In this document: positions 2,571 to 19,001 of the stretch, piece after piece
How the letters are laid out: each line of letters opens with the position of its first letter
How positions within the stretch are numbered: position 1 is the stretch's first letter
Origin: Candidatus Caldarchaeum sp.
GTDB lineage: Archaea > Thermoproteota > Nitrososphaeria_A > Caldarchaeales > Caldarchaeaceae
NCBI GenBank assembly: GCA_038831915.1
Contig: JAWBKB010000025.1
Location: 1-19,001, forward strand
Reading direction: 5' to 3'
DNA length: 19,001 nucleotides
Notes under the pieces: generated by a model
The model's database searches: none
Seen by the model: the letters and a program-made list of their open reading frames with translations, nothing else
What the model was told of the DNA's origin: nothing
Program-made: the position numbers and the translations under genes

Positions 2571-2592
2571 TAAACCGGGAGCGAAGGTTCCT

Positions 2593-3759: not shown

Positions 3760-3762
3760 ATT
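3755..3762 (+). repeat. Left target-site duplication GCTGAATT (contains the TGA stop of the dehydrogenase gene)
   Basis: Identical 8-mer at 4416-4423; both copies directly abut the TIRs. Confidence 0.9.
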
Positions 3763-4415: not shown

Positions 4416-4423
4416 GCTGAATT
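4416..4423 (+). repeat. Right target-site duplication GCTGAATT
   Basis: Identical to 3755-3762. Confidence 0.9.
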
Positions 4424-4425
4424 TC

Positions 4426-4441
4426 CGAAAAAATTTATAAA
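4426..4441 (+). promoter_or_regulatory. BRE + TATA box (CGAAAAAA-TTTATAAA) of the substrate-binding protein gene
   Basis: Consensus TTTATAAA at 4434-4441 preceded by a purine-rich BRE, 24-31 bp upstream of ATG 4465. Confidence 0.75.
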
Positions 4442-4464
4442 CATTTGATGGATCCACATCACAT

Positions 4465-5700
4465 ATGACCGACGTTTCTCGACGCTCCTTTTTCCGGGCA
4501 GTTGGTTCAGTAGTGGCGGCCGGAATCGCGGGAATAGCCGGCGGATATGTTCTCGGTTCCTCGATGACTCGGGCAGAGTTTGAAAGACTTTACGGGCCCG
4601 GCGCCACTCAGGCTGGAAACGAAATAATTAGAAGGCTTGAAGCGGAAATTAAGGAGCTGAAGGAAAAGCTCGCACAGTACGAAATCAAGGACAAGGAAGT
4701 GGGGGTTTATTTCTGGGCCGAAACAATACCCGAACATTTGATCACGTTTTTCGAGGAGAAAACAGGTGTCCGCGTCATTTTCGACACGTTTGACAGTAGC
4801 GACGAAGTTTACGCCAAGCTTTTTACCGGCCGAATGCCCTACGACGTGACATCAGTCACCATGGGTGGAATGACCCGTCAAGAACATGAAAGATATCTGA
4901 TGAAGCTTGATTTGTCCCGCATTCCAAACTTCAAGAGATATGCTTTCGACGGATTCATCAAGGAAATTCTCAACCCGCCTTTTGACCCGAGGAGGGATTA
5001 TTCTGTTCCCGCAGAGCTCGGCACAACAGGCGTGTCATTTAGAACGGATAAAATTTCTGAAAACGACTGGCCAACAGGATTCAGAGATTCGCTTTTTGAT
5101 TTTGACGGGTTTTTGCGGAAATACAGCCCACGAGATGGTGTGAAGAGGGCTACGATGATTCCCGGCGGAGTCGAAACAATTCCCGTAGTTATCAAGGCAA
5201 TTATGGGTAAGTCCATAAACGCCATCACGCCTGAAAACGTACAGGAAGCGAAGGAAATTCTCATCCAGCAGAAGCCATACCTCGCGACATATGCGGGGGC
5301 GTCGGAATATGTGCCAGGCCTCGCCGAAGCAAGGTTCTGGGTCAGCGAAACATGGATTTGGCAGGATTCGCCTAACAACGTAGACTACGTCGCCCCGGTC
5401 GAAGGCTCCGAAATCTGGGAAGATTCTTTCGTCATTCCCAAGTCAGCTGAACACGTCGACGCCGCGTATGCGTTCATCAACTACATGCTTGAGCCGCCGG
5501 TTCAAGTCGCCCATGTTCTTTACAACAGCTTGGTAACCCCGAACAGGCTCGCTTATGAAATGCTTCCAGACGACGTGAAAAACGACCCGAGCATCTACCC
5601 GCCCAAAGAAATCATCGACAGGTATGAGATGTGGGTTAACCGCACGCCGGAGGAGAAAGAACTTCTCACACGAGCATGGCTCGAAGTATTAGCCGCGTAA
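4465..5700 (+). CDS. potD: PotD/PotF-family (polyamine-type) ABC transporter substrate-binding protein with Tat signal
   Basis: SRRSFFR twin-arginine motif plus hydrophobic helix; FEEKTGVRVIFDTFDSSDEVYAKL; KLDLSRIPNF; FDPRRDYSVP; EGSEIWEDSFVIPKSA..AYAFINYMLEP; IYPP; adjacent to potABC. Confidence 0.85.
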   Translation: MTDVSRRSFFRAVGSVVAAGIAGIAGGYVLGSSMTRAEFERLYGPGATQAGNEIIRRLEAEIKELKEKLAQYEIKDKEVGVYFWAETIPEHLITFFEEKTGVRVIFDTFDSSDEVYAKLFTGRMPYDVTSVTMGGMTRQEHERYLMKLDLSRIPNFKRYAFDGFIKEILNPPFDPRRDYSVPAELGTTGVSFRTDKISENDWPTGFRDSLFDFDGFLRKYSPRDGVKRATMIPGGVETIPVVIKAIMGKSINAITPENVQEAKEILIQQKPYLATYAGASEYVPGLAEARFWVSETWIWQDSPNNVDYVAPVEGSEIWEDSFVIPKSAEHVDAAYAFINYMLEPPVQVAHVLYNSLVTPNRLAYEMLPDDVKNDPSIYPPKEIIDRYEMWVNRTPEEKELLTRAWLEVLAA

Positions 5701-6474
5701 CTATTTTCTTCTATACCTTGTGTAGAGTAAAGCGAGGGTCAAGGAGATTAACAGCGACACAGTTGCCACTGCGTTTACTTCCGGAGATATTCCTCGTCCT
5801 CTACCAGCTGCCGCGTTCCAGATGTAGACGGGAAGTGTTTCAAACCCTGGGGCCCGTGTGAACTGTGTTTTGATAAAGCTGTCCCAAGACCATGTGAAAA
5901 TCAACAATCCGCCGGTGACTATGCCGGGCATCAACAACGGCAAGGTGACGCTGAAAAACGTTCTCACGCCTGAAGCACCCAGAACACGGGCCGCGTCTTC
6001 GTAGATTTTCGGCATCCCCGCCATTCGTGCCCTGATGACGACGTAGACGAGCGGAAACCAGACAAGGTGCCCGACAATCACCGCGAAGACCCCGAGCGGA
6101 AGGTCAACCCAGATGAAGAATAAGACGAGTGTCAAAGCTTCTGCGATTTCGGGAATCACGATGGATAGGTAGAACGCGTTATGAAGAGACATGCGTATTC
6201 TTTCGGAGAGCTTTTCCACGGCGACCGCGGCGAGTAGGGCAAACACGATGGAGATGGCGGTGACGACAGCCGCCACCCAGAAACTGTTGTAAAGGGCGTT
6301 GAGCACTCTTGTGTTTGAGAAGGCGCGGAAATACCAGTCCAACGTGAAGCTGCCGACAGATGTTAGAGAGCCGCCCGAAGTGAAGGAGACCAGAGCCATA
6401 GCGGCTAACGGTGCGTAGAGAAATGCGAAGATAAGCACCGCGAATCCTTTGAGCAGTAGGTCGCCGAGCTTCAA
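5701..6474 (-). CDS. potC: ABC transporter permease, PotC-like
   Basis: FLYAPL..LVSF, FTLDWY, EAA loop YEDAARVLGAS..TFFSVTLPLLMPGI, TLPVYIW, ISPEVNAVAT; 4-bp overlap with potB. Confidence 0.9.
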   Translation of the reverse strand: MKLGDLLLKGFAVLIFAFLYAPLAAMALVSFTSGGSLTSVGSFTLDWYFRAFSNTRVLNALYNSFWVAAVVTAISIVFALLAAVAVEKLSERIRMSLHNAFYLSIVIPEIAEALTLVLFFIWVDLPLGVFAVIVGHLVWFPLVYVVIRARMAGMPKIYEDAARVLGASGVRTFFSVTLPLLMPGIVTGGLLIFTWSWDSFIKTQFTRAPGFETLPVYIWNAAAGRGRGISPEVNAVATVSLLISLTLALLYTRYRRK

Positions 6475-7331
6475 AGCGTGAACTCCTCTCTTGAATATTT
6501 GAGGTATAGGATGACGCCGACCATGACCATCGCGATGTATATCAGGGATAGCGCTGAGCCCCAGTTCCAGTTTCGTGCGCTGATGAACGCGGAGTAAATC
6601 ATGGTTCCGACGAAGACTTCGCTGGGGCCTCCGAGAAAAGCAGGTATGACGAATTCGCCTGCCGCGGGGATGAATGTGAGCAGCGTTCCAGCTACTAGAC
6701 CTGGCTTGCTGAGCGGCAGCGTCACTTTGAAGAAAGCCGATAAAGGCCCTGCTCCGAGAGCTCGCGCCGCCTCGATGTGTGTTTTGCTGATTTTTTCCAG
6801 GCTTGCGTAAAGAGGTAGAATCATGAAGGGTAGGTAGCCGTAAATCATGCCCAATAGGACGGCGAATTCGTTGTAGATGAGGTAAAGCGGTTCTCTAATG
6901 ATTCCCATGGCGATGAGTATGTTGTTGACAATTCCTTCGGGCCCGAGAAGGGATAGAACGGCGTAGGCGCGGAGCAGGAAAGTGACCCATAGCGGTAGAA
7001 TGATTAAGAGGACGAGGAAGTTTTTGTATTGTCCGCCTTTAAACGCGATGAGGTATGCAATCGGGTAGCCGAGAATGATGCATGCGGCTGTCGTAGCTAA
7101 TGCGAAAACCAGCGACTTGCCCAGCACACGGAGGAACACGGTGTCCAGTGCCTGCTGAAAATACGTGAGCGTGAAAACATCCCCTCTCAGCTGCTGCGCG
7201 GGACTGGGAAGGATGACGCCGAAGCTTACGCCAACAACCGTGATAAAGGGGAAGATGAAAAAGACGAGGTAGAAGAGGATGGGCGGCAGTAGAAGAAGTA
7301 GAATCAGCCCGGTTTTCCGCTTCTGTTTCAT
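6471..7331 (-). CDS. potB: ABC transporter permease, PotB-like
   Basis: LGYPIAY, LPLWVTFLLRAYA, YLPFMILPLYASLEKI, EAARALGA, FVIPAFLGG, RNWNWGSALS; 4-bp overlap with potA. Confidence 0.92.
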   Translation of the reverse strand: MKQKRKTGLILLLLLPPILFYLVFFIFPFITVVGVSFGVILPSPAQQLRGDVFTLTYFQQALDTVFLRVLGKSLVFALATTAACIILGYPIAYLIAFKGGQYKNFLVLLIILPLWVTFLLRAYAVLSLLGPEGIVNNILIAMGIIREPLYLIYNEFAVLLGMIYGYLPFMILPLYASLEKISKTHIEAARALGAGPLSAFFKVTLPLSKPGLVAGTLLTFIPAAGEFVIPAFLGGPSEVFVGTMIYSAFISARNWNWGSALSLIYIAMVMVGVILYLKYSREEFTL

Positions 7332-8398
7332 CTCTTCTCAACCACGAAAGAGTCGCTGGGCTTCCAGCAGATTGTAACGCTGTCACCGATTTTGATGTTC
7401 CTCAATATCTGGGGCTCGCGGACATGTATCGTCAACAACACCTCGGGAAGAACTCCGACCTTGACCACTCCGTACGGGCCCATAAACTGTTTATCTATGA
7501 CTGATGCGGAAAGCTTGTTTTCATAATCCGGCGAGTTGCCGATGACGATTCTCTCAGGCCTAATTGATAGGATGGCCTTTTTACCGATGACTCCGTTCGT
7601 CTGCGAAGGGTCGATGGTTATCGGCGGCAGTCCATTTGCGACGAAAATGTTCTCCCCTTCGACTGCGCCTTCGATGAGGTTTGTCTCGCCGATGAAGTCG
7701 GCGACGAATTTGTTCAATGGTTTTTCGTAGATTTCCTCGGGAGTGCCGACTTGAAGAACCATTCCACGGTCCATTACGGCTATTCTGTCGGACATGGCGA
7801 ACGCCTCCATCTGGTCATGAGTGACATAGATGAAAGTCGTTCCCACTCTTTTCTGAAGACGCTTCAGCTCAAGCTGCATTTTCTGCCGTATCTTTAAGTC
7901 GAGAGGTCCGAGAGGCTCGTCGAGAAGAAGAACTTTAGGCTCCAACACGAGCGAACGGGCGATTTCAACTCTCTGCCTTTCACCTCCGCTGAGTTGATGC
8001 GATTTTTTCCATGCATATTTTTCGAAAGGCATGTTCATCAGTTCTAAAATTTTCTTGACTCTTTCACGAATCTCGCCGCGTGAAAGACCCCGCATCTTCA
8101 ATCCGAAAGCGATGTTGTCGAAGACGTTGAGATGGGGGAAAATCGCGGTTCCCTGAAAAACAAGTCCAACACCTCTTTTGTTCGGCGGGATGTCGTCCAT
8201 GATTTTGCCGCCGATTTTTACGTTTCCTTCATCCTGGCGTTCAAGACCCGCGATTATCCTGAGGAGAGTTGTTTTGCCGCATCCGCTGGGCCCCAGCAAG
8301 GAGAAGAATTCGTTCTTGTTGATTGATAGAGTTACTCCGCGAAGTGCTTCGACGCCGTCGTAGCTTTTTCGAACGTTCAGGACTTCTACTTCGGCCAT
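7328..8398 (-). CDS. potA: ABC transporter ATP-binding protein, PotA-like
   Basis: Walker A GPSGCGKT, signature LSGGERQR, Walker B LLLDEP, YVTHDQ, FVADFIGETN, C-terminal TOBE-like RPERI. Confidence 0.95.
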   Translation of the reverse strand: MAEVEVLNVRKSYDGVEALRGVTLSINKNEFFSLLGPSGCGKTTLLRIIAGLERQDEGNVKIGGKIMDDIPPNKRGVGLVFQGTAIFPHLNVFDNIAFGLKMRGLSRGEIRERVKKILELMNMPFEKYAWKKSHQLSGGERQRVEIARSLVLEPKVLLLDEPLGPLDLKIRQKMQLELKRLQKRVGTTFIYVTHDQMEAFAMSDRIAVMDRGMVLQVGTPEEIYEKPLNKFVADFIGETNLIEGAVEGENIFVANGLPPITIDPSQTNGVIGKKAILSIRPERIVIGNSPDYENKLSASVIDKQFMGPYGVVKVGVLPEVLLTIHVREPQILRNIKIGDSVTICWKPSDSFVVEKR

Positions 8399-8452
8399 CG
8401 TATTCTTTGCCTCACCTTTCTATGAGCTTTACATAAATATTGTGAAACATGG

Positions 8453-9817
8453 TTATAGGATTTCTTCAACCCCTATGGGTGCGAATTTTTTCTTCAGCTT
8501 TGTCACCACGGCTTTCATGGCTTCCAGCGCTGTTTCGATGTCTTGTTGGGTGTGTTGCACCGAAACGGTCCACTGCTCGTCATAGCCTAAAGCCTGTGGG
8601 ATAACGCCGTTCGCTAGCATACCCATCACCCAGGCATACCATTTGCCGAAGTCGTTGAACTTGACGAATTCACGCCAGTTGGTTATCTTGTGAGGCGTGA
8701 AGTAGATGGTTCCGCTTGTGGCGATGTGCACGATGTTATACTCGATGCCGGCGTCCTGGAGAATGTCTCCGTATCCGTGTGCGAGGTCTTGGCTTAGGCT
8801 CTGGGCTTTTCGCAGATTTTCCTCTGTTAAAATCTTGGTCAAAGTCACGTAGGCCGCTGACACCGACAACGGGTTTGAGTTGAATGTTCCGCCGTGAGCG
8901 GTCTTGCCAGGGCCCACGACTTCGAAAATTTCCTTCCGCGCCATGACAGCTGAAAAAGGATAACCTCCTGCGATCGACTTCGCCGCGACCATTACATCGC
9001 CTTTAACACCGCACCATTCCTGAACACCTCGATAAAACTTTCCACTTGTCTTAACCTCGTCGAAAATCAGCAAGCAATTGTATTCATCCGCTATTTCCCG
9101 CAGTCCTTTGAGGAACTCGATGTCCGGTATGACGACGCCCATGTTCATGGCGATTGGTTCGAGAATTATGCCTGCGACCTGATTTCCATGTTGCTGCATG
9201 ATTTTTTCCACGGCGTCGTAATCTCCAAACGGCGCGGCCACCACGAGGTTTGCGAATTCTTCCGGCATACCCATACTCGCCGGAACTGAATTAGGTGTTT
9301 TAATGTGACCCGCCCTATAGATATTAGGCTTAACGCTCACCATCAACGGTTCATGCGTGCCGTGGAAACAACCTTCAAACTTGAGAATCTTCTTGCGGCC
9401 CGTGAAGGCCCGTGCCAGCCGAACCGCGAGCAAAGTCGCCTCCAACCCGGTGGTCGCAAACCTAACAATGTCATATCCAAACCTCGAAGTAAGAACTTTC
9501 GCGGTTTTGACAGATGTTTCGGATTCGAACCCGAAAATCGTGCCATTTTCGACCACTTTTCGCATCTCTTCGACGAGAATCGGATGAGCATGTCCGACAC
9601 CCAACGCTCCAAAAGCCATGTTAAAGTCGATGTATTCGTTTCCGTCAACATCCCATATCCGCGGCCCTTTACCAGACCGCATAAACAATGGATATGGGTC
9701 GAAAATCCTCCAGTTGCTATGAACACCGTATGGAGTCAGTTTTTTCGCATCCTCGTAGAGCTGAGAACTCCGTGATGTTTTGGACTTGAATTCCTCTAGG
9801 AATGATTCCTCAGACAT
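8453..9817 (-). CDS. Class III PLP-dependent aminotransferase (glutamate-1-semialdehyde aminomutase-like, substrate unknown)
   Basis: WDVDGNEYIDF, GHAHP, TGLEAT, KFEGCFHG, IILEP, LIFDEVKT, PLP lysine in AAKSIAGGYP, HGGTFNSNP. ATG 9817 preferred over TTG 9829 from TATA spacing. Confidence 0.9.
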   Translation of the reverse strand: MSEESFLEEFKSKTSRSSQLYEDAKKLTPYGVHSNWRIFDPYPLFMRSGKGPRIWDVDGNEYIDFNMAFGALGVGHAHPILVEEMRKVVENGTIFGFESETSVKTAKVLTSRFGYDIVRFATTGLEATLLAVRLARAFTGRKKILKFEGCFHGTHEPLMVSVKPNIYRAGHIKTPNSVPASMGMPEEFANLVVAAPFGDYDAVEKIMQQHGNQVAGIILEPIAMNMGVVIPDIEFLKGLREIADEYNCLLIFDEVKTSGKFYRGVQEWCGVKGDVMVAAKSIAGGYPFSAVMARKEIFEVVGPGKTAHGGTFNSNPLSVSAAYVTLTKILTEENLRKAQSLSQDLAHGYGDILQDAGIEYNIVHIATSGTIYFTPHKITNWREFVKFNDFGKWYAWVMGMLANGVIPQALGYDEQWTVSVQHTQQDIETALEAMKAVVTKLKKKFAPIGVEEIL

Positions 9818-9846
9818 ACTTTTGAACAATCAATACTAAAAATATA

Positions 9847-9854: not shown

Positions 9855-10056
9855 GCTATTCCTACATCATACGCCGGTTTTCGGCTAGCATATCCAGGTT
9901 TCGCAAACAATTTGTGTAAGCGAACTTAGACGTGTGACGACATGCTGTAAATAGAAACGTGATGTCAAGAATGTTTGGATAGCAACTTAACAAGCCACGT
10001 CTTTGGGCGAGGATTTGGTTACGCATAAATTCACGCTATGGTTTGTATATGTCGGG

Positions 10057-10359
10057 ATGACGGTTCGCGTCAATTTCTATTCGAGTTATCTGAAGGAGGC
10101 CTCGGGAACCGAAAGCATTCATATCTCAGAGGAGCCCAAAACTGTGGGAGAATTACTCGACCTTCTCGCCGCAAAGCTCGGAGCGAAATTCGAAGAACGC
10201 GTTTACGACTCGAAACAGAAGGTGCTGAAAAGAGCGGTTGTCCTTCTCGTTAACGGCCACAGTGTAAAGATGCTGCAGGGCATGGATACTCCTCTTACAT
10301 CGGGTGACAACGTAACAATCGACACCGTAGAGATAGTGGAAATAGTGGGCGGCGGATAA
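10057..10359 (+). CDS. MoaD/ThiS/SAMP-family ubiquitin-like sulfur carrier protein
   Basis: Beta-grasp pattern MTVRVNFYSSYLKEASG..TVGELLDLL..VLLVNG..GMDTPLTSGDNVTI with C-terminal GGG. ATG 10057 matches the family N-terminus better than TTG 10003. Confidence 0.88.
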   Translation: MTVRVNFYSSYLKEASGTESIHISEEPKTVGELLDLLAAKLGAKFEERVYDSKQKVLKRAVVLLVNGHSVKMLQGMDTPLTSGDNVTIDTVEIVEIVGGG

Positions 10360-10381
10360 AAAATAAGGAATGTTTATTTTT
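10359..10381. terminator. Candidate bidirectional terminator between convergent SAMP and Fe-S subunit genes
   Basis: AAAAATAA-(7 nt)-TTATTTTT inverted repeat giving a T-tract on each strand. Confidence 0.4.
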
Positions 10382-10835
10382 CTTTGGCCGCGTCGAGAAT
10401 CGCGTCGATTATCTGCCTGTAGCCCGTGCATCTGCAGAGAATGCCGTCAATCGCCTCGGCCACTCTTTTCCGGTAGAGGCCGTTTTCATGCTGTATCAAC
10501 CAATGGCCGGTCAAGACGAACGCGGCGGTGCATATTCCGCATTGAAGCGCTCCGTGTTTGATGAAGGATTTCTGAATGGGGCTGAGTGAGCCGTTTTTCG
10601 CAAGTCCTTCGATGGTCAGTATTTCGGCTCCGTCTACTTCGGGAGCGAGGACGAGACAGGATTTGACCGGGGCGTTGTTGACTAGAACGGTGCAGATGCC
10701 GCAGTCTCCTCTGTCACATCCATGCTTTGTTCCTTTGAGCTTTAGCTTTTCGCGGATAAGCCAAAGCAAAGTCCTGTTATCCTCGACCTCGACTTTTCTT
10801 TCAACACCGTTTACCTTCACGGTTATGCTACGCAA
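10374..10835 (-). CDS. Mo-hydroxylase small subunit, two [2Fe-2S] clusters (CoxS/CutS-like)
   Basis: GTKHGCDRGDCGICTV..KSCL; QCGICT; CRCTGY. TTG 10835 has GGAGG 9 nt upstream and overlaps the medium-subunit stop. Confidence 0.93.
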   Translation of the reverse strand: MRSITVKVNGVERKVEVEDNRTLLWLIREKLKLKGTKHGCDRGDCGICTVLVNNAPVKSCLVLAPEVDGAEILTIEGLAKNGSLSPIQKSFIKHGALQCGICTAAFVLTGHWLIQHENGLYRKRVAEAIDGILCRCTGYRQIIDAILDAAKEK

Positions 10836-11703
10836 CTGCCATCGCCTCCACACCAAGTAACTTGTTCAATGCGTTCCGCGTGAAAGTCTTCACAAGATGC
10901 AGCCGGTATTCTTTGCTCGCCCTAACGTCTGAAATGGGTGACACAGCTGACACCGCCAATTCAACAGCTTTGTTAATTTTATCACGGATGTCGCCGTCTT
11001 GTTTAAACACGTTTTCAGCATTTCTCGCCCTGACAGGGGTTGGTGCGACGCTCGCGTAGGCAAGCCTGACATCTCTTCCCCTGTCGGCGACCAAAGCCGC
11101 TACACCGACCAAAGCCAAATCTTCACTCCAAACTCGCATAGCCTTCATGTAGGTTCCCTTCGCGTCATGCGGAGGCTCGGGAAGCTTCACCGAAACAACA
11201 ATTTCCCACGGCTCCAACACCGTCTTCTTAACTCCGGCGAAGAACTGCTCAATGGGAATCTTTCTGCCGCCGCGTTTACTGGCTGTTTCAACCACGGCGT
11301 CGTACACCAACAACGCTGGAGCCGTATCTGCTGCGGGTGAAGCGGTGCAGATGTTACCCACCAACGTCGCACGCATACGGAGGATTTCATCAGCCACGGT
11401 TTTCACAGCCTCCCACAAAACAGGATATTTATTCAACACAGGCTCGTAGGAAAGAATCTGATGGTAGGTGACGGTCGCGCCTATCACTAGCCCGTTGCCC
11501 GGCTCATACTTTAGAACGTTCAATCCCTTAATCCGTTTGACGTCGATGACTGCTTTCGGGTGTTTCTTTTTTTCGCGTAAATCGACGATGAGGTCTGTGC
11601 CTCCTGCGAGGATTTTCGCTTCGCCGCCGTATTTCTCCAACAGGTCAAGAGCTTCTTCAAGTGTTTCAGGCGCGTAATACGTGAATTTCGGCAAATACAT
11701 CAC
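10828..11703 (-). CDS. Mo-hydroxylase medium subunit, FAD-binding (CoxM/CutM-like)
   Basis: FTYYAPETLEEAL, KILAGGTDL, IGATVT, RATLVGNICTASPAAD, PISDVRASKEYR. GTG 11703 or ATG 11700, with GGAGGTGA SD. Confidence 0.93.
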   Translation of the reverse strand: MMYLPKFTYYAPETLEEALDLLEKYGGEAKILAGGTDLIVDLREKKKHPKAVIDVKRIKGLNVLKYEPGNGLVIGATVTYHQILSYEPVLNKYPVLWEAVKTVADEILRMRATLVGNICTASPAADTAPALLVYDAVVETASKRGGRKIPIEQFFAGVKKTVLEPWEIVVSVKLPEPPHDAKGTYMKAMRVWSEDLALVGVAALVADRGRDVRLAYASVAPTPVRARNAENVFKQDGDIRDKINKAVELAVSAVSPISDVRASKEYRLHLVKTFTRNALNKLLGVEAMAVA

Positions 11704-14060
11704 TTCATCACCTCCATCACAATTTTCTCCTTCTTCGCCTGTATGTGGAGCCAGACGTTTTCAGGTGATATTGGCAGGTTTTTGATGTTGATTCCAAGGG
11801 CGTCGTAAAGTGCGTTTGCGATGGCTGTTTCGACCGACAGCATCGACAACTCTCCGATTCCACGTGCTCCATAGGGGCCGTCGAGCTGGGGGTTTTCTAT
11901 GATGATGGCTTCATGTTCTTCTGGGATGTCGCTTGCTCTCGCGATTTTGTAGTCGGTGAGGTTCGGGTTAAGCATTCGTCCCTGCTCATCATAGACATAT
12001 CCCTCTAAAACGCCGAGGCTCATCGACTGAAGAGCGCCTCCGTAAATCTGGCCGAGGACTAGCAAGGGGTTGATGGCTTTTCCTATGTCAAACGCGGAGA
12101 CAAGTTTCAGGACTTTTATCATTCCTGTGCCTGGGTCGACTTCGATTTCGACGGCGTGAGCTCCGAAAGTCCATTTCAACGCCGGATATCCCTGACCTGT
12201 TTCGGGGTCGAGGTATGTTAGCCGAGCCGCTGAATAAAAGCCGCGTCCGATGACCGGGCCGCCGACCACGTTGCCGTTAGGATACACGTAGCCGTTGACA
12301 ATTTGACGCAGCTCAAGCCCGACGTCAGGCCTTCCCTTCACATACACTTTTTCATCGGCCAACACCAAGTCGTCTTTGGAAACTCGGAGAACTTGCGAAG
12401 CGATTTCGAGTATTTGGTTTTTCGCGTCTCGTGCCGCGGCCTGAACCGCTCGACCGTCCATAAACAATCCTCGACTGGCTACGGTCTGCCAGGAATACGG
12501 CGAGACATCGGTGTGTCTGAATGGGACGACTTTGATTTTTTCAATCGGCAGCCCGAGTTCTTCCGCTGCGATTTGGGCGAGAGCTGTTTCAGCTCCTTGT
12601 CCTATTTCGGTTATTCCGAGCAATAGCTCAGCTGTTCCGTCTTCGTTGAATTTGATTACGGCTGCTGATGAAGCGTTGGGAGGCATGGCGGGAGCTTTCC
12701 ACAGCGCCGCGATTCCTTTACCACGAGGCTTGCCGGTCGGAGACACAGATTTCTTACCCCATTCAATTTTTGCAGCCACGGCCCTTATGCATTCGTCGAC
12801 TCTGCCCGCATCCTCTCTCAAAACCTCGCCCGTAGGAGTTGTTTTGCCGGGAAGCAACGCGTTCTTCAGCCGAATTTCAACCGGGTCCATCCCCAGCTCT
12901 CGTGCCAACAAATCCATTTGGCGCTCGATGGCCCAGAGAAATTCGAAATGACCGAAGCCGCGGAAAGCCGTTCCCCATGGATGATTTGTATAGACCGTGA
13001 GCGATTCTGTTTCGACGTTCGGCACATAGTAAGGCCCTGTGCATGAATAGCCGGCGGCACGGCCGACGTTCACGCCGTAGTCAGCGTATGCTCCCGCATC
13101 GTAGACGTAGAGAATTTTTTCAGCCATGATTTCGCCGGATTTCTTTGCGCCGGTTTTGATTTTCGCGTAAAGGCCCTGCCTCACCGGAGCCGTCATGAAC
13201 TGTTCTTCACGGGTCAGTTCCAGCCGCACGGGCCTGCCGCCAGCCATCTTCGACAGCATCACGACTAATGGCTCAAAGTTGATTCCAGCTTTTCCACCAA
13301 ATCCACCTCCAACGTAGGGCACGTAGACCGTGATGCGGTGCTCGGGAACGCCGAGCGAAACACTGAGAATATGCCGTACCGTGAAAGGTGATTGAGCCGA
13401 CGTCCACACCTTGATTTTTCCATCAGGCATGTATTGTCCGATGCTGATGTGTGTTTCGAGCGGAACATGTGAAACCTGAGGCATGCTGAATTCATTTTCC
13501 AACACCACGTCGCTTTGAGCGAAACCAGTCCGAATGTCGCCTTTCTTTAAGACGAACCTGCTGGCGATGTTAGTGCCTGCGACGGGATGGAAAGCAGGCG
13601 AATGAGCGTATTCTCCAAGCTCTTCATGAACCAACGGCGCCCCGTGCTTCAACGCTTCCCTAACGTCTAAAACGGCTGGCAAAGGCTGGTATTGGACGTC
13701 TATCAGCTCGACTGCTTCTTCCGCTTGTTCAGGTGTTTCAGCGACGACGGCTGCGACAGGTTCGCCGGTCCATCTCACTTTTTTACGAGCCAGTATGTTC
13801 CGGTCATTTACGTAGAGACCTACGCGGAAAGGAAAATCATCACCTACCGCAACAGCGACAACTCCCGGAGATTTCCGCGCCTTCGACGTGTTTATGGAGA
13901 GAATTTTGGCATGGGCGTACGGGCTGAGCAGAAGCTTGGCGTGAAGCATTCCGGGAAGCTCAATATCACCCGTATATTCCGCGACTCCGAGAATTTTCTC
14001 AAACGAATCAACTCGTGGAATGGGCTTCCCTACGTACCTAAAGTCAGCCCCGAAACTCAT
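11700..14060 (-). CDS. Xanthine dehydrogenase family molybdopterin-binding large subunit (heterocycle hydroxylase-like)
   Basis: VGKPIPRVD, VGGGFGGK, AFRGFG active-site loop, EIGQGAET, QTVASRG, DIGKAINP..GQIYGG, GPYGARGIGE. ATG 14060 preferred over 14069 from TATA spacing. Confidence 0.93.
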   Translation of the reverse strand: MSFGADFRYVGKPIPRVDSFEKILGVAEYTGDIELPGMLHAKLLLSPYAHAKILSINTSKARKSPGVVAVAVGDDFPFRVGLYVNDRNILARKKVRWTGEPVAAVVAETPEQAEEAVELIDVQYQPLPAVLDVREALKHGAPLVHEELGEYAHSPAFHPVAGTNIASRFVLKKGDIRTGFAQSDVVLENEFSMPQVSHVPLETHISIGQYMPDGKIKVWTSAQSPFTVRHILSVSLGVPEHRITVYVPYVGGGFGGKAGINFEPLVVMLSKMAGGRPVRLELTREEQFMTAPVRQGLYAKIKTGAKKSGEIMAEKILYVYDAGAYADYGVNVGRAAGYSCTGPYYVPNVETESLTVYTNHPWGTAFRGFGHFEFLWAIERQMDLLARELGMDPVEIRLKNALLPGKTTPTGEVLREDAGRVDECIRAVAAKIEWGKKSVSPTGKPRGKGIAALWKAPAMPPNASSAAVIKFNEDGTAELLLGITEIGQGAETALAQIAAEELGLPIEKIKVVPFRHTDVSPYSWQTVASRGLFMDGRAVQAAARDAKNQILEIASQVLRVSKDDLVLADEKVYVKGRPDVGLELRQIVNGYVYPNGNVVGGPVIGRGFYSAARLTYLDPETGQGYPALKWTFGAHAVEIEVDPGTGMIKVLKLVSAFDIGKAINPLLVLGQIYGGALQSMSLGVLEGYVYDEQGRMLNPNLTDYKIARASDIPEEHEAIIIENPQLDGPYGARGIGELSMLSVETAIANALYDALGINIKNLPISPENVWLHIQAKKEKIVMEVMK

Positions 14061-14066
14061 CACATA

Positions 14067-14093
14067 CATAATTTATGGCGCGTGGTTTAAAAA
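14067..14093 (-). promoter_or_regulatory. TATA box TTTTTAAA (14093-14086) and palindrome CATAATTTATG (14067-14077) upstream of the L/M/S operon
   Basis: TATA lies 26-33 bp upstream of ATG 14060; the palindrome lies between TATA and start. Confidence 0.5.
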
Positions 14094-14213
14094 CATAATC
14101 ATTTTGACGACGGCGAAACAACTATCACTAAATTATTTACTAAATTTGTGTTCACGAGCTTTATGCATCAGTTGAATAGGGTTAAAACCAGCGACCGCCA
14201 ACACATATTGCGC

Positions 14214-15611
14214 ATGACCTCTAATCCGGCGTTAAACAGGATTCAAATGCTTTTGGATGAAGGAAGTTTTCAGCAGATTTTTGCGGGAATTGAGCAGCAG
14301 GCCGCCGATGTTCCGAAAAAGCCCGGCGACGGTGTCTTCGCTGGTTTCGGCAAAATAGAGGTAAGGGATGTTGCGGTCGCTGCACACGACCCGACTTTCG
14401 CGGGAGGCTCTTTGGGTGAAGTTGGGTTGAGGAAGATGGCTAAGTTGTTCGAGTTAGCTGGTCGATTCGGTGTTCCCATCGTCGTATTAACCGATTCTTC
14501 GGGAGCACGCCTGCAGGAAGGAGCGCGGTCTCTCCTCGCCGTGGGCGAATTAGTGAAGGTGGCGAACTCAGTTCATGGAAAAATTCCGATAATCAACGTG
14601 ATTATCGGCGGCGGTGTCGGAGGAGCAGCTTTCACAGCTGAAGTCGGCCACATCGTCATCGGCGTGGCCAAAACCGGCTACATGTTTCTACACGGCCCCC
14701 GAGCAGTCAAGCACGCAACGGGACAAGACATATCCATCATGGAGCTCGGCTCGGTGAAATCTCTCGCCGAAACATCTGGTATGATAGACTTTCTTGTGGA
14801 AGATGAAGCCGAAGCCATCTCGCTTGTAAAAACAATCCTGACTTATCTGCCGTCTAACAGCAGGGAAGCTCCGCCGAAGCCTGGACGAGCCGTGAGGCTG
14901 CCGCGACCCGTTCAAGAAGAAACCGAAACCCGGAAGCTGATAGCGGAAATCGTCGACCCCGACAGCTTCCTCGAATTCAACGCCTTCTACGCACCCAACA
15001 TGATAACTGGCTTGGCCCGTGTCGACGGCACGGTTGTTGGAATTGTTGCCAACGAGCCGGCCAAAATGAACGGCTACATCGACGTCAAAGCATGCATCAA
15101 GCTTTCTCAGTTCGTCAACTTCTGCAACATCTTCAACATCCCAGTGCTAACGATTGTGGACACACCCGGGTTTGAGCCGGGCAAAACCGCCGAACACGAA
15201 GGAATAGTTAGGGAAGGCGCCGACGTCTACAGAGCCTATCTCAACGCATCGGTTCCAAAGATAACTTTATTGGCGGGCAAAGCATACGGCGGAGCATTCA
15301 TCGCGATGTGCAGCAAAGGCATCGGAGCGGACTATGTCATGGTGTTTCCTACGTCCGAGGCAGCTGTCCAACCTCTCGAAATTTCAGCTGAAATCCTTTA
15401 CCGCAAAGAGCTGGAGAAACTTTCGGGTGAAGAAAAAACAAAAGCGTTTACACAGTACGTGGAAAATTTGAGAAAGCTGGCACGTGGCGAGGCGTTGCTC
15501 AGCATAGGAGTCGCCGACGAAGTCATCAACCGCGACCAAGCGAGAAAAGCCGTTTCAGCAATTCTACAAAAGCTCTACGAAAACTACGTCCGTTTCCATC
15601 TCAAACATTAG
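14214..15611 (+). CDS. Acyl-CoA carboxylase carboxyltransferase (PccB/MmdA-like) subunit, divergent
   Basis: RIQMLLDEGSF, GDGV, GGSLGE, DSSGARLQEG, MFLHGP, YLPSN, GLARVDG..VGIVANEP, VDTPGFEPG, KAYGGAFIAMCSK. ATG 14214 preferred (TTAAAA at 14182-14187); track start is 14148. Confidence 0.9.
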   Translation: MTSNPALNRIQMLLDEGSFQQIFAGIEQQAADVPKKPGDGVFAGFGKIEVRDVAVAAHDPTFAGGSLGEVGLRKMAKLFELAGRFGVPIVVLTDSSGARLQEGARSLLAVGELVKVANSVHGKIPIINVIIGGGVGGAAFTAEVGHIVIGVAKTGYMFLHGPRAVKHATGQDISIMELGSVKSLAETSGMIDFLVEDEAEAISLVKTILTYLPSNSREAPPKPGRAVRLPRPVQEETETRKLIAEIVDPDSFLEFNAFYAPNMITGLARVDGTVVGIVANEPAKMNGYIDVKACIKLSQFVNFCNIFNIPVLTIVDTPGFEPGKTAEHEGIVREGADVYRAYLNASVPKITLLAGKAYGGAFIAMCSKGIGADYVMVFPTSEAAVQPLEISAEILYRKELEKLSGEEKTKAFTQYVENLRKLARGEALLSIGVADEVINRDQARKAVSAILQKLYENYVRFHLKH

Positions 15612-15619
15612 CCATTTTA

Positions 15620-16882
15620 TTATATTCCGTATTTTTCGGCGTATCGTCTGAGTGCCTGTTTGAATGGTTCTATGGGTATTTCCACGATGCCTGCTCCGAC
15701 TTGACCGACGCCGGGGTTTCGATGAGCTATTCCCGTATCGGCTACGGGAGGTAGGCCCAGCCGCAGAATCTTCCGGACATCTACACCGGTTGGTGTTCCT
15801 TCGAATTCGAGGTAGGGAATCGTGAAATAACGATGCTTGCCGTAGGTTATCCGGCTCATTCTGTTTGTTATTTCGACGGCTTGTTTGACGTCTCCTCCCA
15901 CGAATCTGACTATTGCCGGGCTCGCGGCCATCGCAGCAGCTCCAAGCCCTGCTGTCTCGGTGATGGTGCTGTCGCCGATGTCAGGGTTCGAATCGGCCTC
16001 TGTAAAGCCTGGAAAGTAAAGGCCTTTCGGAACCGGGGCCGGTGAAACAAACCATTCATCACCCAGCCCGCTCACCCTAATGCCGAGGTCTGTTCCGTTC
16101 CGTGAAATCGCCGTAACAATCGTGCTGTATGGAATGTTATGTGCCTTGTCTGCCATGAGTTTGCAGGAAGCCATGGCGAGGTTGAGGAAGAAATGATTGT
16201 TCGCGTCTATGGTCGATAAAACTGTGCGTGCTTCGTTTTTGTCGGCGACTTTCAAGACGTAGGGTGATATTTCACGGAAAAACAGCGATGTTGCTGCCAC
16301 GTTTCTGTTGTGACATTCATCGCCCATGTGAACAGCCTGAGCGATGATGTTTCGAAGGTCTATTCCGCCTTTGTCGTTGACGGCTTCGTGGATAGCGTTG
16401 GCTAAGACAACGGCGAACTGTCCGTTCAGATACTTCAGCCTATCGAGAACGTCTTTCGAATACGCTCCATAACGCAGAACGCGGCCCAAGCCTTCGTTGA
16501 TGTTGCTGTAGGAGCGGGATTCGCCGTCTCTGAGGACGAAAACTTTCATCGAAGGAGATATTACTCCAGCCATCGGGCCGACGGCGGAGTTGTGATGATT
16601 CGGCTCCAGCAGTACTTCACCTCTTTCAAGGAGTTTGACGGCTTTTTCCTCGGTGTCCGCCCATCCTTCGAAGAGAACCGCTCCTATGATAGCTCCGCGT
16701 AACGGCCCGCTCGTCCTTTCCCATGAAATCGGAGGCCCGGCATGAGTCAACCGGTAGTCTTGCCTCAAAAAAGAGATGGCTTTTCTGGCTTCGACAACGT
16801 CGACGAGAACAGGCCGTGTCTCAACCATGCGTTCGAAAGCCTGCTGGTTAGCTTTTTCAACGGTTTCTTTCAGGCTTTCCAT
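15620..16882 (-). CDS. ylbE: DUF1116 family protein (YlbE/YahG-like; oxamate carbamoyltransferase subunit AllG family)
   Basis: HAGPPISWE..GPLRGAIIGAVLFEGWA, AVGPMAGVISPSM, NEGLGRVLRYGAY, MGDECHNRNVAAT, HFFLNLAMA, RNGTDLGIRVSG, NPDIGDSTITETAGLG, TGIAHRNPGVGQVGAG. Confidence 0.92.
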   Translation of the reverse strand: MESLKETVEKANQQAFERMVETRPVLVDVVEARKAISFLRQDYRLTHAGPPISWERTSGPLRGAIIGAVLFEGWADTEEKAVKLLERGEVLLEPNHHNSAVGPMAGVISPSMKVFVLRDGESRSYSNINEGLGRVLRYGAYSKDVLDRLKYLNGQFAVVLANAIHEAVNDKGGIDLRNIIAQAVHMGDECHNRNVAATSLFFREISPYVLKVADKNEARTVLSTIDANNHFFLNLAMASCKLMADKAHNIPYSTIVTAISRNGTDLGIRVSGLGDEWFVSPAPVPKGLYFPGFTEADSNPDIGDSTITETAGLGAAAMAASPAIVRFVGGDVKQAVEITNRMSRITYGKHRYFTIPYLEFEGTPTGVDVRKILRLGLPPVADTGIAHRNPGVGQVGAGIVEIPIEPFKQALRRYAEKYGI

Positions 16883-16885
16883 GGT

Positions 16886-17689
16886 CTATTCCGACGTAAC
16901 AGCGATGACTCTGCAGTAGGCTGTTTCACCGCCTTCAAATTTGAACGGCAAAGCCATAATCAGACATCGTTTGTCGGCGACTTTTTCAATCTCGCCGCCG
17001 AGGTTTTCCGCATGCAGAATCATCTCCGGAAACAAGGCGATGTGCATCACCTGATAGTTTTCAGGCCACGGCATTAGTTCGTCAATTTTCTTCCCCCATT
17101 TCTTCTCGGCTTCGGCCACGAGGTCAGGCCTCGCCCGCCTAATCACCGTGTTAAACGGATGGTCCTGTGAAGCCGCGTCAATACCCAGCCAACGAATCTT
17201 TTTCTCGATACACCATCTAGCGAACTCCGCGGTTGGGCCGGGATGCTTACACATGTATCGGACTTCGTCAGGCTCGGGCCCGCACCACGCATACCGATGA
17301 TAGCCGGTGTGAATGATGAGAATGTCGTCGGGCTTGATTTGCAGACCCGCTTCTTTCGCAACTTCTTCGATGGTTTGACTCGTGTAAATGTCGTAGTCTC
17401 CCACTTTCTTGCTAATGTCGACGATGACCCCTTCGCCGATGAAATAGTTGATGTCGATGCTTGCGATGTCTTTTCCACCTGTCATGAAATGAAGCTGGCC
17501 GTCGAAATGCGTTCCGGTGTGAAGCGGCCCTTCAATGTACTGGGCGTTCACGTTGTGTTCGCTCAAACGCTTAATCCAAGTCACTTTGAAAGGCGGATAC
17601 CACATGAAAGGTGGGGCGCGGGGACTCGTCGGCTGAGAAAGGTCGTAAATTTTTATCTTCGACCAATCCCAAACAGATTTTGCACTCAT
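16886..17689 (-). CDS. Cyclase family metal-dependent amidohydrolase (kynurenine formamidase/isatin hydrolase fold)
   Basis: HTGTHFDGQLH (HxGTHxD metal motif), DILIIHTGY, HPG, GIDAASQDH, HAENL, PFKFEGGE..RVIA. ATG 17689 preferred from TATA spacing; 3-bp gap to the DUF1116 gene. Confidence 0.9.
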   Translation of the reverse strand: MSAKSVWDWSKIKIYDLSQPTSPRAPPFMWYPPFKVTWIKRLSEHNVNAQYIEGPLHTGTHFDGQLHFMTGGKDIASIDINYFIGEGVIVDISKKVGDYDIYTSQTIEEVAKEAGLQIKPDDILIIHTGYHRYAWCGPEPDEVRYMCKHPGPTAEFARWCIEKKIRWLGIDAASQDHPFNTVIRRARPDLVAEAEKKWGKKIDELMPWPENYQVMHIALFPEMILHAENLGGEIEKVADKRCLIMALPFKFEGGETAYCRVIAVTSE

Positions 17690-17750
17690 ACATATCAACA
17701 TGTCAAAACTAATATAAATATTGGCCGCCAGAAGTTGATGATGTATTGAC
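17690..17750. promoter_or_regulatory. 61-bp divergent promoter with one central AT block (AATATAAATATT, 17711-17722)
   Basis: Reads TTTATATT on minus and TATAAATA on plus; flanked by inverted repeat CATGTCAA (17699-17706) / TTGACATG (17746-17753). Confidence 0.55.
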
Positions 17751-19001
17751 ATGGGTTTGTCGCGAACAGTAAATTATGTGATTCGCGGCGTGTACAGAGA
17801 TTCTGTTCAACTCATGGAAGTTTCTGAACGCGTTAAACGATTGCCCGGTGTCTTGGACGCGGCGGTTGTCATGGGGACGGCTGCGAACAAGGAATCCCTC
17901 AAACCGTTGGATTTGCTCACCGTCGAAGGTGAGCAGGCAGGGCCCAACGACATCATCGTCGCGTTAAAAGTCTCAGAAAGCCCTGAACAAATTTTCGAAG
18001 AAGTGAAGAAAATTCTGTTTGAAACAAAAAAAGCTGCCGCGAGACACTTTAGTTTTGAAGACGCAATCAAAGCTCATCCAGACATAAAGTACGCTTCAAT
18101 ATCTATTCCCGGTAAATATGTCGAACGCATCGCTTTGGAAATGCTTCGACATGGTGTGAACTTGTTTGTTTTTAGCGACCACGTGCCGGTGGAAACCGAA
18201 GTCCTGCTGAAGAGGAAAGCTGCTTCCCGTGATTTGCTGGTTATGGGTCCCGAAGCGGGAACCGCGATTGTCTCAGGAGTTGGGTTCGGGTTTGCGAACA
18301 AGGTTGCAGAAGGCCCCGTGGGAGTAGTTGCCTCCGCTGGTTCAGGAATCCAAGAATTCGTCACCCTTCTCGACCACTACGGATTGGGCATAAGCCATGC
18401 CATCGGCGTGGGAGCTCGAGACCTAAGCCGAAAAGTCGGAGGAATCATGACGAGAAAAGCTCTCAAAACTCTTGACGAAGACCCCAAAACTCTGATACTC
18501 GCGTTGATCGCGAAGCAATCCGACATCGACGTGGTTCGTGAAATTCTCGAAGGTGAGAAGTTTTCCAAACCTCTTGTCACTTGTCTTCTCGGACATGAGA
18601 CGAAAATTTCAGAGTATCCACAGGCTTCGACGCTTCATGGATTGTTTCTGAAAGCAGCTTCAGCTTTTTCAAGACAGGTCTACCAGAAAGCGTTGGACGC
18701 GTTATTCAGAGATGTCAAGGCGTTGACGGGCCTCGTTCGGAGGGAAACAGGATTTCCGAGAGCTTTTTACAGCGGCGGAACTTTGGCGACTGAAACGGCG
18801 TATGTATGGACGAAGGCTGGGTTGAAAGTTTATTCAAACCTCGGCTCCTCATGGACGCAACAGCTTCCCAGCCCCTACGTTTCTGTCGAATCAACCGTCG
18901 TCGACTACGGCAGCGAGGAATTCACCGAGGGACGGCCCCATCCAATAATCGACCCAACACTTCGAAACAAAAGAATTATCGCGGAACTAAACTCGCCCGA
19001 C
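17751..19001 (+). CDS. fdrA: FdrA (acyl-CoA synthetase-like; oxamate carbamoyltransferase subunit AllF family), 3'-truncated by the window end
   Basis: Not in the ORF track. Manual translation is open for 417 codons: MGLSRTVNYVIRGVYRDSVQLM..VVMGTAANK..GPNDII..SISIPGKY..FVFSDHV..LVMGPEAGTA..FANKVAEGPVGVVASAGSGIQE..ISHAIGVGARDLS..YSGGTLATE..DYGSEEFTEGRPHPIIDPTLR. Confidence 0.9.
   Translation, partial: MGLSRTVNYVIRGVYRDSVQLMEVSERVKRLPGVLDAAVVMGTAANKESLKPLDLLTVEGEQAGPNDIIVALKVSESPEQIFEEVKKILFETKKAAARHFSFEDAIKAHPDIKYASISIPGKYVERIALEMLRHGVNLFVFSDHVPVETEVLLKRKAASRDLLVMGPEAGTAIVSGVGFGFANKVAEGPVGVVASAGSGIQEFVTLLDHYGLGISHAIGVGARDLSRKVGGIMTRKALKTLDEDPKTLILALIAKQSDIDVVREILEGEKFSKPLVTCLLGHETKISEYPQASTLHGLFLKAASAFSRQVYQKALDALFRDVKALTGLVRRETGFPRAFYSGGTLATETAYVWTKAGLKVYSNLGSSWTQQLPSPYVSVESTVVDYGSEEFTEGRPHPIIDPTLRNKRIIAELNSPD

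Follow-up and report, generated by a model that had tools for sequence, protein, structure and literature searches.

The stretch analysed here, called the window below, is an entire contig of 19,001 bp (JAWBKB010000025.1, hereafter C25) from the genome of a Candidatus Caldarchaeum species (GCA_038831915.1; 1.59 Mb, 95.6% complete), and it forms the left half of a catabolic island of ~30 kb that is split over C25 and a second contig, C11. This island is very probably a coherent system for the catabolism of an N-heterocycle, predicted to be organised around a relative of the three-subunit carbamoyltransferase AllFGH that would release carbamoyl phosphate. The best-supported reading takes the substrate to be a pyrimidine that would be degraded by way of barbiturate and (methyl)malonyl-coenzyme A (CoA), and to this reading a probability of about 0.5 is assigned. 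A sequence-only reading of the same DNA had described a molybdenum (Mo) hydroxylase operon of the large, medium and small subunit (L/M/S) type, a carboxyltransferase, a DUF1116 protein, a cyclase and fdrA as contiguous, and these seven genes do lie side by side, with strong family matches, together with two divergent spacers.

10374..10856, minus strand: 2Fe-2S small subunit, xanthine-oxidase family (PF01799 Fer2_2, 84 bits; PF00111, 37 bits).
10828..11703, minus strand: FAD-binding medium subunit (PF00941, 169 bits; PF03450, 67 bits).
11700..14069, minus strand: Mo-cofactor large subunit of the 'w11 type' (PF02738, PF20256, PF01315).
14070..14162, no strand: divergent spacer between the Mo operon and the carboxyltransferase gene, with two A/T-rich, TATA-like boxes (~14086-14093 and 14130-14147).
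14148..15611, plus strand, likely start ATG 14163: divergent, short carboxyltransferase of the acyl-CoA carboxylase/decarboxylase beta/alpha type (PF01039, 361 bits).
15620..16882, minus strand: AllG/DUF1116 subunit of the AllFGH-like carbamoyltransferase (PF06545, 295 bits).
16886..17752, minus strand, likely start 17689: cyclase-family metal-dependent amidohydrolase (PF04199, 127 bits).
17690..17750, no strand: divergent spacer between the cyclase gene and fdrA, with one A/T-rich, TATA-like box (taatataaatatt).
17751..19001, plus strand, cut at the contig end: FdrA/AllF subunit, succinyl-CoA-synthetase-alpha-like (NF004760, 283 bits).

The two divergent promoters that had been proposed are present as spacers with TATA-like boxes, and those in 14070-14162 each lie ~20-30 nt from the nearest start codon; that the boxes of this spacer act as promoters is plausible from their position, and the same role may be supposed for the box in 17690-17750.

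The purified AllF-AllG-AllH complex of E. coli is an oxamic transcarbamylase, according to Kim & Kim 2024 (PMC11326118), and it is with this enzyme (EC 2.1.3.5) that the centre of the island can be compared. Identity of the window AllG to its E. coli counterparts is 44% for AllG and 40% for YahG, and its nearest database relatives, like those of the carboxyltransferase, carry the name Candidatus Caldarchaeum. The window FdrA, 37% identical to YahF versus 34% to AllF, spans positions 6-405 of the 555 in profile NF004760, and the truncated gene scores under the cut-off of 433. The third subunit, AllH (DUF2877), is located at the 3' end of C11, where it scores 63-66 bits, with no NCBIfam match. 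FdrA/AllF, DUF1116/AllG and DUF2877/AllH are therefore found together, and all three are contiguous in G010, a relative of the same genus whose genome is a single contig.

The gene for FdrA is open at its 3' end because the assembly breaks at the end of C25. At the end of C11, on the reverse strand, there are a C-terminal FdrA fragment and an open reading frame of 51 amino acids (aa) that matches FdrA profile positions 503-554. Onward along the same strand follow AllH (convergent with the 51-aa frame), a 246-aa protein and a second Mo large subunit; then a first ABC system (Bmp binding protein, a pair of permeases, ATPase), a CodA-like amidohydrolase and another Bmp binding protein; and then a second ABC system, a cytosine deaminase, a PAC2 gene, uracil phosphoribosyltransferase (Upp) and DNA-repair genes. 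The join between C25 and C11, with ~44 FdrA residues missing between the contigs and an expected gap of ~130 bp, is well supported, since G010 carries both gene sets as one island, in rearranged order and with an intact FdrA of 516 aa. The order there is AllG and cyclase; FdrA and the 51-aa module; AllH; the 246-aa GNAT-like protein and the second Mo large subunit; the carboxyltransferase; the L, M and S Mo subunits; a MoaD-like gene; and finally the CodA-like gene, an ABC gene, two permeases and two Bmp proteins. The sequence-only reading had named the DNA beyond position 19,001 as a place to look for AllH, carbamate kinase and a biotin carrier: AllH is there, the carbamate kinase is on contig C4 instead, and no biotin carrier was found in the genome.

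As the sequence-only reading had already suggested, this is not the classical allantoin (all) locus. In place of canonical allantoin genes, the DNA beyond the window encodes AllH, the GNAT-fold protein, the second Mo subunit, importers of the Bmp-ABC kind and CodA-type deaminases; allantoin-pathway families gave no match among the island genes scanned, and the Ldh_2/AllD family none in the window genome. The phylogeny of AllG points the same way. In a tree of 84 sequences (quick IQ-TREE search, LG+G4) the window protein falls outside the clade of E. coli AllG (SH-aLRT 99), so that orthology with the characterised protein does not hold. Of the 21 rows in that clade 18 are linked to carbamate kinase, three to neither kinase nor cyclase, and none to a cyclase. 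The window protein belongs to an archaeal clade (support 91), also of 21 rows, with 14 linked to a cyclase, two to cyclase and carbamate kinase, two to the kinase and three to neither; over the whole tree just four switches are needed between cyclase-linked and kinase-linked states. E. coli YahG clusters with proteins of Tissierella, Clostridium ultunense and Flavonifractor, outside the archaeal clade. The window system is an AllFGH-like enzyme in another context, and the classical allantoin locus was rejected as an explanation.

The 51-aa frame (C11, 50494-50646, minus strand) corresponds to two E. coli segments, residues 513-554 in AllF and 12-53 in YahG, with 40% identity to the N-terminus of the latter. 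In the window genome ~88 bp are shared between its gene and the convergent gene for AllH. Among 20 detected copies of this module 13 stand alone, one is fused to the C-terminus of FdrA, five are fused to the N-terminus of AllG, and the copy in L053 is unclassified. It forms the C-terminal tail of FdrA in E. coli AllF and L068, and the N-terminal extension of AllG in E. coli YahG, L083, L099, L102, L104 and L107. In a model of the complex the C-terminal helix of the module lies on AllG beside the AllG N-terminus, with a score of 0.88 against 0.00 for the best of three controls; three runs share at least 90% of contacts, and the partner pLDDT is at least 60. Of 80 solved complexes 58 attain the mark used in this test, as do 2 of 110 mismatched pairs, and for a split-gene case such as this one a pass is to be expected. 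The solved DUF1116 structure 3clq is without the module.

The distribution of the island was followed at two depths. Within the order AllG occurs in 15 of 41 sampled genomes (the window genome included) and, apart from the window genome, in 4 of the 12 that belong to the genus, so that the island is accessory. Among seven relatives whose loci were fetched, AllG, cyclase, FdrA, the 51-aa module and AllH are present in all seven (some AllH matches being weak, at 24-29% identity), the Mo large subunit in six and the carboxyltransferase in five, and a cyclase homologue adjoins AllG in every one. A wider survey, in which an AllG alignment was run against species-representative genomes, gave 562 relatives; the best 80 were kept, and the 41 of these loci in which AllG is flanked by 5 kb or more on each side served as the counting set. 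FdrA is found in all 41, the cyclase in 25, the Mo large subunit in 20, the FeS subunit in 19, the FAD subunit in 18, the 246-aa GNAT-like protein and carbamate kinase in 13 each, the carboxyltransferase in seven (all archaeal) and the CodA-like amidohydrolase in six; only four loci combine the cyclase with carbamate kinase. Two types of locus can be told apart, one consisting of FdrA, AllG and carbamate kinase, as in E. coli, and the other of FdrA, AllG and a cyclase with a Mo hydroxylase. The second type extends beyond the archaea to Chloroflexota, Thermotogota, Spirochaetota, Bacillota and Acidobacteriota, with bacterial homologue clusters for example in Fuchsiella, Thermomicrobium and Lutispora, and the association of fdrA and DUF1116 with a cyclase and a Mo subunit, suggested from the window, was thus recovered in both domains.

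A cyclase is present in 33 of the 80 loci. The neighbours in these 33 were clustered by BLAST, and a Pfam scan of a single representative from each cluster showed CoA-transferase III in six loci, a thiolase-like protein in five, a C-N hydrolase in three and OAD_beta in three. Family-III CoA-transferases include an oxalate-activating enzyme, and the C-N hydrolase could deamidate oxamate, both of which would suit an ordinary oxamate carbamoyltransferase: the Mo enzyme and the cyclase would then make oxalurate from, for example, a parabanate or hydroxyhydantoin-type ring, and oxamate would pass through oxalate to oxalyl-CoA. Oxalurate is, moreover, the family's only demonstrated substrate (PMC11326118). 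This account is nevertheless improbable, given that the window AllG stands outside a clade of E. coli AllG proteins with no cyclase-linked member, that there is no AllD in the genome and no allantoin gene in the island, and that no thiamine-dependent decarboxylase appears among the annotated recurrent neighbours (cluster representatives being those scanned). It would also leave the carboxyltransferase/OAD_beta operons and the PrpD/PrpB-type genes described below unexplained.

What the analysis shows is the gene content, the contig join, a synteny conserved in two domains, an AllG separate from the E. coli clade, and a set of folds and motifs. From these we infer the following course for a pyrimidine (cytosine, uracil or thymine), in its substrate, its reactions and its assignment of hydrolases to steps. 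Bmp-type ABC systems would import the base or nucleoside, and CodA-type deaminases would yield uracil or thymine, which one or more Mo hydroxylases would oxidise at C6 to barbiturate or 5-methylbarbiturate. Opening of the ring by a metal amidohydrolase would give ureido(methyl)malonate, which like oxalurate is an N-acylurea; for this step the leading candidate is the cyclase-family protein, with the CodA-like paralogue as an alternative. The AllF/AllG/AllH-like complex and its 51-aa module would then use phosphate to convert ureido(methyl)malonate to carbamoyl phosphate and (methyl)malonamate, and the carbamate kinase encoded on C4 would turn carbamoyl phosphate into ATP. The GNAT-fold protein and the carboxyltransferase may process the C3 acid in the form of a CoA ester, and decarboxylation would give acetyl- or propionyl-CoA. 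In the known oxidative pathway, as given in PMC3758960, a pyrimidine is converted through barbiturate and 3-oxo-3-ureidopropanoate to malonate and urea. 3-Oxo-3-ureidopropanoate is an N-acylurea one carbon longer than oxalurate, and the earlier suggestion that ureidomalonate is the one-carbon homologue of oxalurate agrees with this intermediate.

The Mo hydroxylase is of the L/M/S type: the large subunit has the hammerhead and two MoCo-binding domains, the FAD and 2x[2Fe-2S] subunits belong to the same operon, all Pfam domains are over their cut-offs, and the genes overlap or abut over 10374-14069. The same enzyme logic could serve a purine-derived or other N-heterocycle, such as a xanthine- or urate-type, hydantoin-type or isoguanine ring, which a Mo hydroxylase and a hydrolase would bring to an N-acylurea for phosphorolysis by the AllFGH-like enzyme. 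The best-named models of the Mo subunit are indeed xanthine dehydrogenases (XDHs), PucR-family regulators occur in four bacterial loci of the cyclase type, and Xan_ur permeases occur in seven of the 33. Bmp/PnrA-type binding proteins are commonly tied to purine nucleosides, and CodA-family enzymes also deaminate non-pyrimidine rings. Yet the large subunit scores under every XDH equivalog cut-off in NCBIfam (XdhA 541 versus 780 bits, PucD 453 versus 784, XdhB 338 versus 850), and its closest solved relatives are not XDHs: they are 4-hydroxybenzoyl-CoA reductase alpha, CoxL and quinoline oxidoreductase. It carries Ala after the GGGFGGK motif, where XDHs presumably carry Glu, an observation of little weight that comes from a look at the motif. 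Subunits of the w11 type adjoin AllG at 15 places among the 80 loci, and the window subunit is a candidate uracil/thymine hydroxylase rather than a canonical XDH on this comparison. Five clustered base differences in an RNA-derived contig over 12522-12588, within the large-subunit gene, are probably a strain variant.

The genome has, in addition, a separate locus on C4 (~13900-25900, L043) with two OTC-family carbamoyltransferases, a threonine-synthase-like pyridoxal-phosphate enzyme, the genome's carbamate kinase, an XDH-like L/M/S enzyme and an SsnA-like aminohydrolase, and it is plausible that this is a purine locus distinct from the island. It resembles the enterobacterial ygeW/ssnA/xdhD region. 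On the side of a pyrimidine, a true cytosine deaminase (520 versus the NCBIfam cut-off of 483) and Upp (220 versus 208) stand on C11 beside the island's second ABC importer, and the island's own CodA-like amidohydrolase has its best scores against cytosine-deaminase models. This paralogue is also present in G010, G033, G017/L045, L055 and L120, and an NCS1 permease of the cytosine/uracil type lies beside FdrA in L061. Known purine routes, finally, give no C3 unit of the (methyl)malonyl type, which would explain the carboxyltransferase/OAD_beta operons, the PrpD/PrpB-type genes and the CoA-transferase. Taken with the separate SsnA/XDH-like/carbamoyltransferase/carbamate-kinase locus and the flanking cytosine deaminase and Upp, these points make a purine-derived or other ring unlikely.

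For the opening of the pyrimidine ring, the cyclase has a conserved metal-site segment, HTGTHFDGQLH, which aligns with HTGTH.DAP.H of kynurenine formamidase and isatin hydrolase (4co9, 5nmp), and it is not an arylformamidase equivalog (47 bits versus a cut-off of 223). A ring-opening or amide-cleaving step is proposed for it. The AtzD/TrzD barbiturase family, PF09663, gave no match in the window genome, a weak negative, for the family was equally silent in all 14 control genomes. In the Chloroflexota loci L063, L068 and L077 two cyclase-family genes follow AllG in tandem, and extension of the first frame runs through the second to give a single frame of 556-559 aa; L077 has two adjacent sets of FdrA, AllG and cyclase.

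The later steps are suggested by the company that the island keeps. CoA-transferase, thiolase and C-N hydrolase genes, OAD operons, PrpD/PrpB-type genes and a GNAT fold together point to a C3 dicarboxylic acid that would be carried as (methyl)malonyl-CoA and decarboxylated, and a C3 unit of this type is what would be expected from C4-C5-C6 of uracil or thymine. The 246-aa protein of C11 matches nothing in Pfam or NCBIfam, and an Atlas search gave only a weak GNAT lead; its AF2 model (pLDDT 86, pTM 0.84) has a GNAT fold, the top Foldseek matches in the PDB all being GNATs (E from 5e-7, query-normalised TM 0.4-0.5), and a part in the handling of CoA esters would be in keeping with this model.

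The carboxyltransferase had been called an orphan, and it is indeed the only Carboxyl_trans gene in its genome, with no biotin partner found. Members of its subtype score 353-381 bits against the Pfam model, versus 657-688 for the partner-linked type; the subfamily comprises ~12 clusters at 48% identity or more, after which identity falls to ~42%, and its named members are Caldarchaeum-type archaea with one exception, a metagenome-assembled genome labelled Methanomethylicaceae. The window protein retains the Gly-rich segments GGVGGAA and KAYGGA that it shares, as a catalytic subunit would, with partner-linked carboxyltransferases, and it lacks their N-terminal segment and ANPY motif and has a linker deletion. 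The genome has no OAD_beta and no biotin carboxylase (Biotin_carb_C), the latter being absent also from G010, G033 and G037, and BPL-like matches in the window genome and G010 are under the cut-off. No biotinyl carrier was found either: tblastn with the carrier of L047 gave nothing beyond two Biotin_lipoyl sites (E 3e-5 and 1e-3). One of the genome's two Biotin_lipoyl matches, on C33, was rejected as a carrier, as its motif, ETEKA, is of the lipoyl type and its neighbours are genes for 2-oxoacid dehydrogenase E1; the other is on C4, where the motif was not inspected. This carboxyltransferase may act without biotin, work with some other partner, or be a relic and inactive. A role as the decarboxylating component for (methyl)malonyl-CoA is proposed from its family and its neighbours. 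In an RNA-derived contig of low depth a joint that goes back 467 positions (15308/14842) inside this gene is probably an assembly artefact.

In several relatives the partners are at hand. In L047 a single operon within the cluster comprises genes for the carboxyltransferase, OAD_gamma, a biotin carrier and OAD_beta; in the islands of G033 and G037 the carboxyltransferase is convergent with OAD_beta, a carrier with an ESMKME motif and a small membrane protein, and BirA is also present; L048 has biotin partners as well. In L048 and L061 the carboxyltransferase adjoins PrpD and a methylisocitrate-lyase-type (PrpB-type) gene. Inside the G033 island, directly after BirA, is a multi-pass membrane protein of 187 aa (C20 ~34123-34686, local 25124-25687) that might be a biotin transporter.

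Whatever the ring, the carboxyltransferase could instead be a general acyl-CoA carboxylase or decarboxylase subunit for propionate metabolism and a mere neighbour of the island. There is a single such gene in G000 (the window genome), G010, G013, G014, G033 and G037, and a second, housekeeping copy in relatives was looked for and rejected, each of five relatives having one. The biotin carboxylase regions of G013 and G014 lie elsewhere and contain a carrier and no carboxyltransferase; G013 retains cyclase, AllH, AllG, FdrA and the module with no carboxyltransferase nearby; no bacterial locus has one; and beside PrpD/PrpB-type genes the protein could belong to propionate metabolism. Against this, the gene remains in or next to the island despite several rearrangements, and it does so in three archaeal lineages (G000, G010, G014, G017, G033, G037, L044, L047, L048 and L061), with linkage beyond the order in Desulfurococcales and Thaumarchaeota loci. 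Decarboxylase partners accompany it within the island in G033, G037, L047 and L048, with BirA also in the first two, and the lack of biotin carboxylase in G000, G010, G033 and G037 leaves no carboxylase role there. That it is a bystander thus appears doubtful. The synteny with fdrA and DUF1116 that had been looked for holds in five of seven relatives and in the two groups beyond the order, and it does not extend to any bacterial locus.

Several observations count against a pyrimidine pathway as proposed. The Bmp transporters, the Xan_ur permeases and the PucR regulators of four bacterial loci would suit purines equally well, and the Mo subunits are generic members of their family, the best NCBIfam name for the window large subunit being XdhA_XDHase, at 541 bits and below the cut-off. 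Carbamate kinase is encoded outside the island, on C4. In the window genome the carboxyltransferase is without a biotin carboxylase, a biotinyl carrier and OAD_beta; it is the sole copy in each genome, and its linkage to AllG is confined to archaea (7 of 41 loci). In G010 Upp is not adjacent to the island, and CodA looks frameshifted: the cytosine deaminase homologue (C1 ~502166-503424) falls in two frames, with query residues 1-77 and 73-419, which could reflect a frameshift, a pseudogene or a sequencing error. The shares given for the 41 loci, drawn from the best 80 of 562 relatives of an archaeal-centred query, are not unbiased, and tblastn under-detects AllH and the 51-aa module. No gene for a uracil/thymine dehydrogenase (EC 1.17.99.4) was found for comparison in the literature covered, which leaves out most subscription journals. 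The only substrate demonstrated for an AllFGH enzyme is oxalurate/oxamate.

The sequence-only reading had held that one pathway would explain every gene. Those of the checks proposed with it that could be made by computation all turned out in its favour, in synteny and in context; the archaeal restriction of the carboxyltransferase linkage and the missing biotin partners of the window protein weigh the other way, and the individual steps would be as set out above. At its fullest the proposal is of a complete, ATP-yielding oxidative pyrimidine pathway in archaea and many anaerobic or thermophilic bacteria, in which the Mo enzyme is the uracil/thymine dehydrogenase, the cyclase replaces barbiturase, ureido(methyl)malonate is a second natural substrate of the AllFGH type, and the carboxyltransferase of the Caldarchaeum lineage works without biotin partners; in this full form it is tentative, with odds somewhat short of even.

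There is a hint that the island genes are transcribed. In the metatranscriptome library X1, 13 short contigs (12 with an identity of at least 99%) lie over the FeS, FAD, Mo, carboxyltransferase, AllG and cyclase genes, and DNA carry-over is a possible source. The X1 contigs gave no cover of the fdrA part 17826-19001 and several other bins, and library X2 gave no contigs.

To the left of the Mo operon the window encodes one further gene that travels with the island.

10003..10359, plus strand: MoaD/ThiS-like small protein of the ubiquitin fold (PF02597 ThiS, 42 bits; TIGR01687 moaD_arch, 47 bits with a cut-off of 49.5).

Its homologue adjoins the FeS gene in G010, where the 2Fe-2S subunit has a homologue 78% identical to that of the window; it lies within the islands of G033 and G037, and homologues occur in six of the 80 wider loci. 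From family and position the protein is probably a factor for molybdenum-cofactor biosynthesis or an accessory of the island. Further to the left, positions 285-9829 contain a third Mo large subunit of 761 aa, which scores 803 bits versus a cut-off of 790 as an archaeal glyceraldehyde dehydrogenase alpha, and no FAD or FeS gene; its neighbours are a saccharopine-dehydrogenase-like gene, a Pot-type ABC importer and a class-III aminotransferase. This third large subunit may use the FAD and FeS subunits of the island.

Uracil/thymine dehydrogenase activity has been known since the 1950s, and if the pyrimidine pathway is correct the island would provide candidate genes for this enzyme, for which no published gene was found, as well as a substitute for barbiturase as the ring-opening enzyme. 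The three-subunit AllFGH carbamoyltransferase would become a class of N-acylurea phosphorylases and no longer an oddity with one substrate, and it would be explained how pyrimidines could supply microbes with ATP, and in some lineages with a sodium gradient too, when no step depends on oxygen and no urea is released. To our knowledge no pyrimidine-catabolic route has been described for archaea, so that this would be the first candidate. No published description of this cluster or route was found in the literature covered, with the same reservation about subscription journals. The window itself contributes the archaeal variant, the link to the carboxyltransferase and, through the adjoining contig, the flanking cytosine deaminase and Upp.

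Among the known systems that come closest to the island is AllFGH of E. coli with the carbamate kinase AllK, from the anaerobic allantoin branch. The same three families, FdrA, DUF1116 and DUF2877, are encoded together, AllG and FdrA are 44% and 34% identical, the window genome has a carbamate kinase, and the expected chemistry is the phosphorolysis of an N-acylurea to carbamoyl phosphate. The differences are that the window AllG lies outside the E. coli AllG clade; that the island is without allK and allB/C/D/E and so lacks the context of an all operon; that the archaeal system has a cyclase (7 of 7 relatives) and usually a Mo hydroxylase; that the C-terminal 42 residues of E. coli AllF correspond to a free-standing 51-aa gene; and that the substrate is probably ureido(methyl)malonate and not oxalurate.

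A second likeness is to the E. coli cluster yahEFG-yahI-yahJ, which combines the FdrA/DUF1116/DUF2877 trio with a gene of the amidohydrolase superfamily, and for which we know of no established function. We take this cluster to encode paralogous DUF2877, FdrA-like and DUF1116 proteins with a carbamate-kinase-like protein and an amidohydrolase; unlike the island, it is without cyclase, Mo hydroxylase and carboxyltransferase.

The oxidative pathway of aerobic actinobacteria runs through uracil/thymine dehydrogenase, barbiturase and ureidomalonase (Soong et al. 2001/2002, as cited in PMC3758960). Common to both would be the intermediates barbiturate and 3-oxo-3-ureidopropanoate, a C3 product of the malonate type, and a Mo-type dehydrogenase as the first enzyme. 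In the island, by contrast, a metal hydrolase, either of the cyclase family or CodA-like, would open the ring, the ureido group would be released as carbamoyl phosphate (equivalent to one ATP) and not as urea, and the C3 acid is tied to genes for CoA metabolism and decarboxylation. The Na+-translocating, biotin-dependent (methyl)malonyl-CoA decarboxylases (Mmd/Gcd/Mad), lastly, have a carboxyltransferase of the same domain family, and in L047, L048, G033 and G037 the island carboxyltransferase is accompanied by OAD_beta and a biotin carrier (in L047 also by OAD_gamma); the protein of the window differs from that type in being short and divergent and in that its partner genes were not found in its genome.

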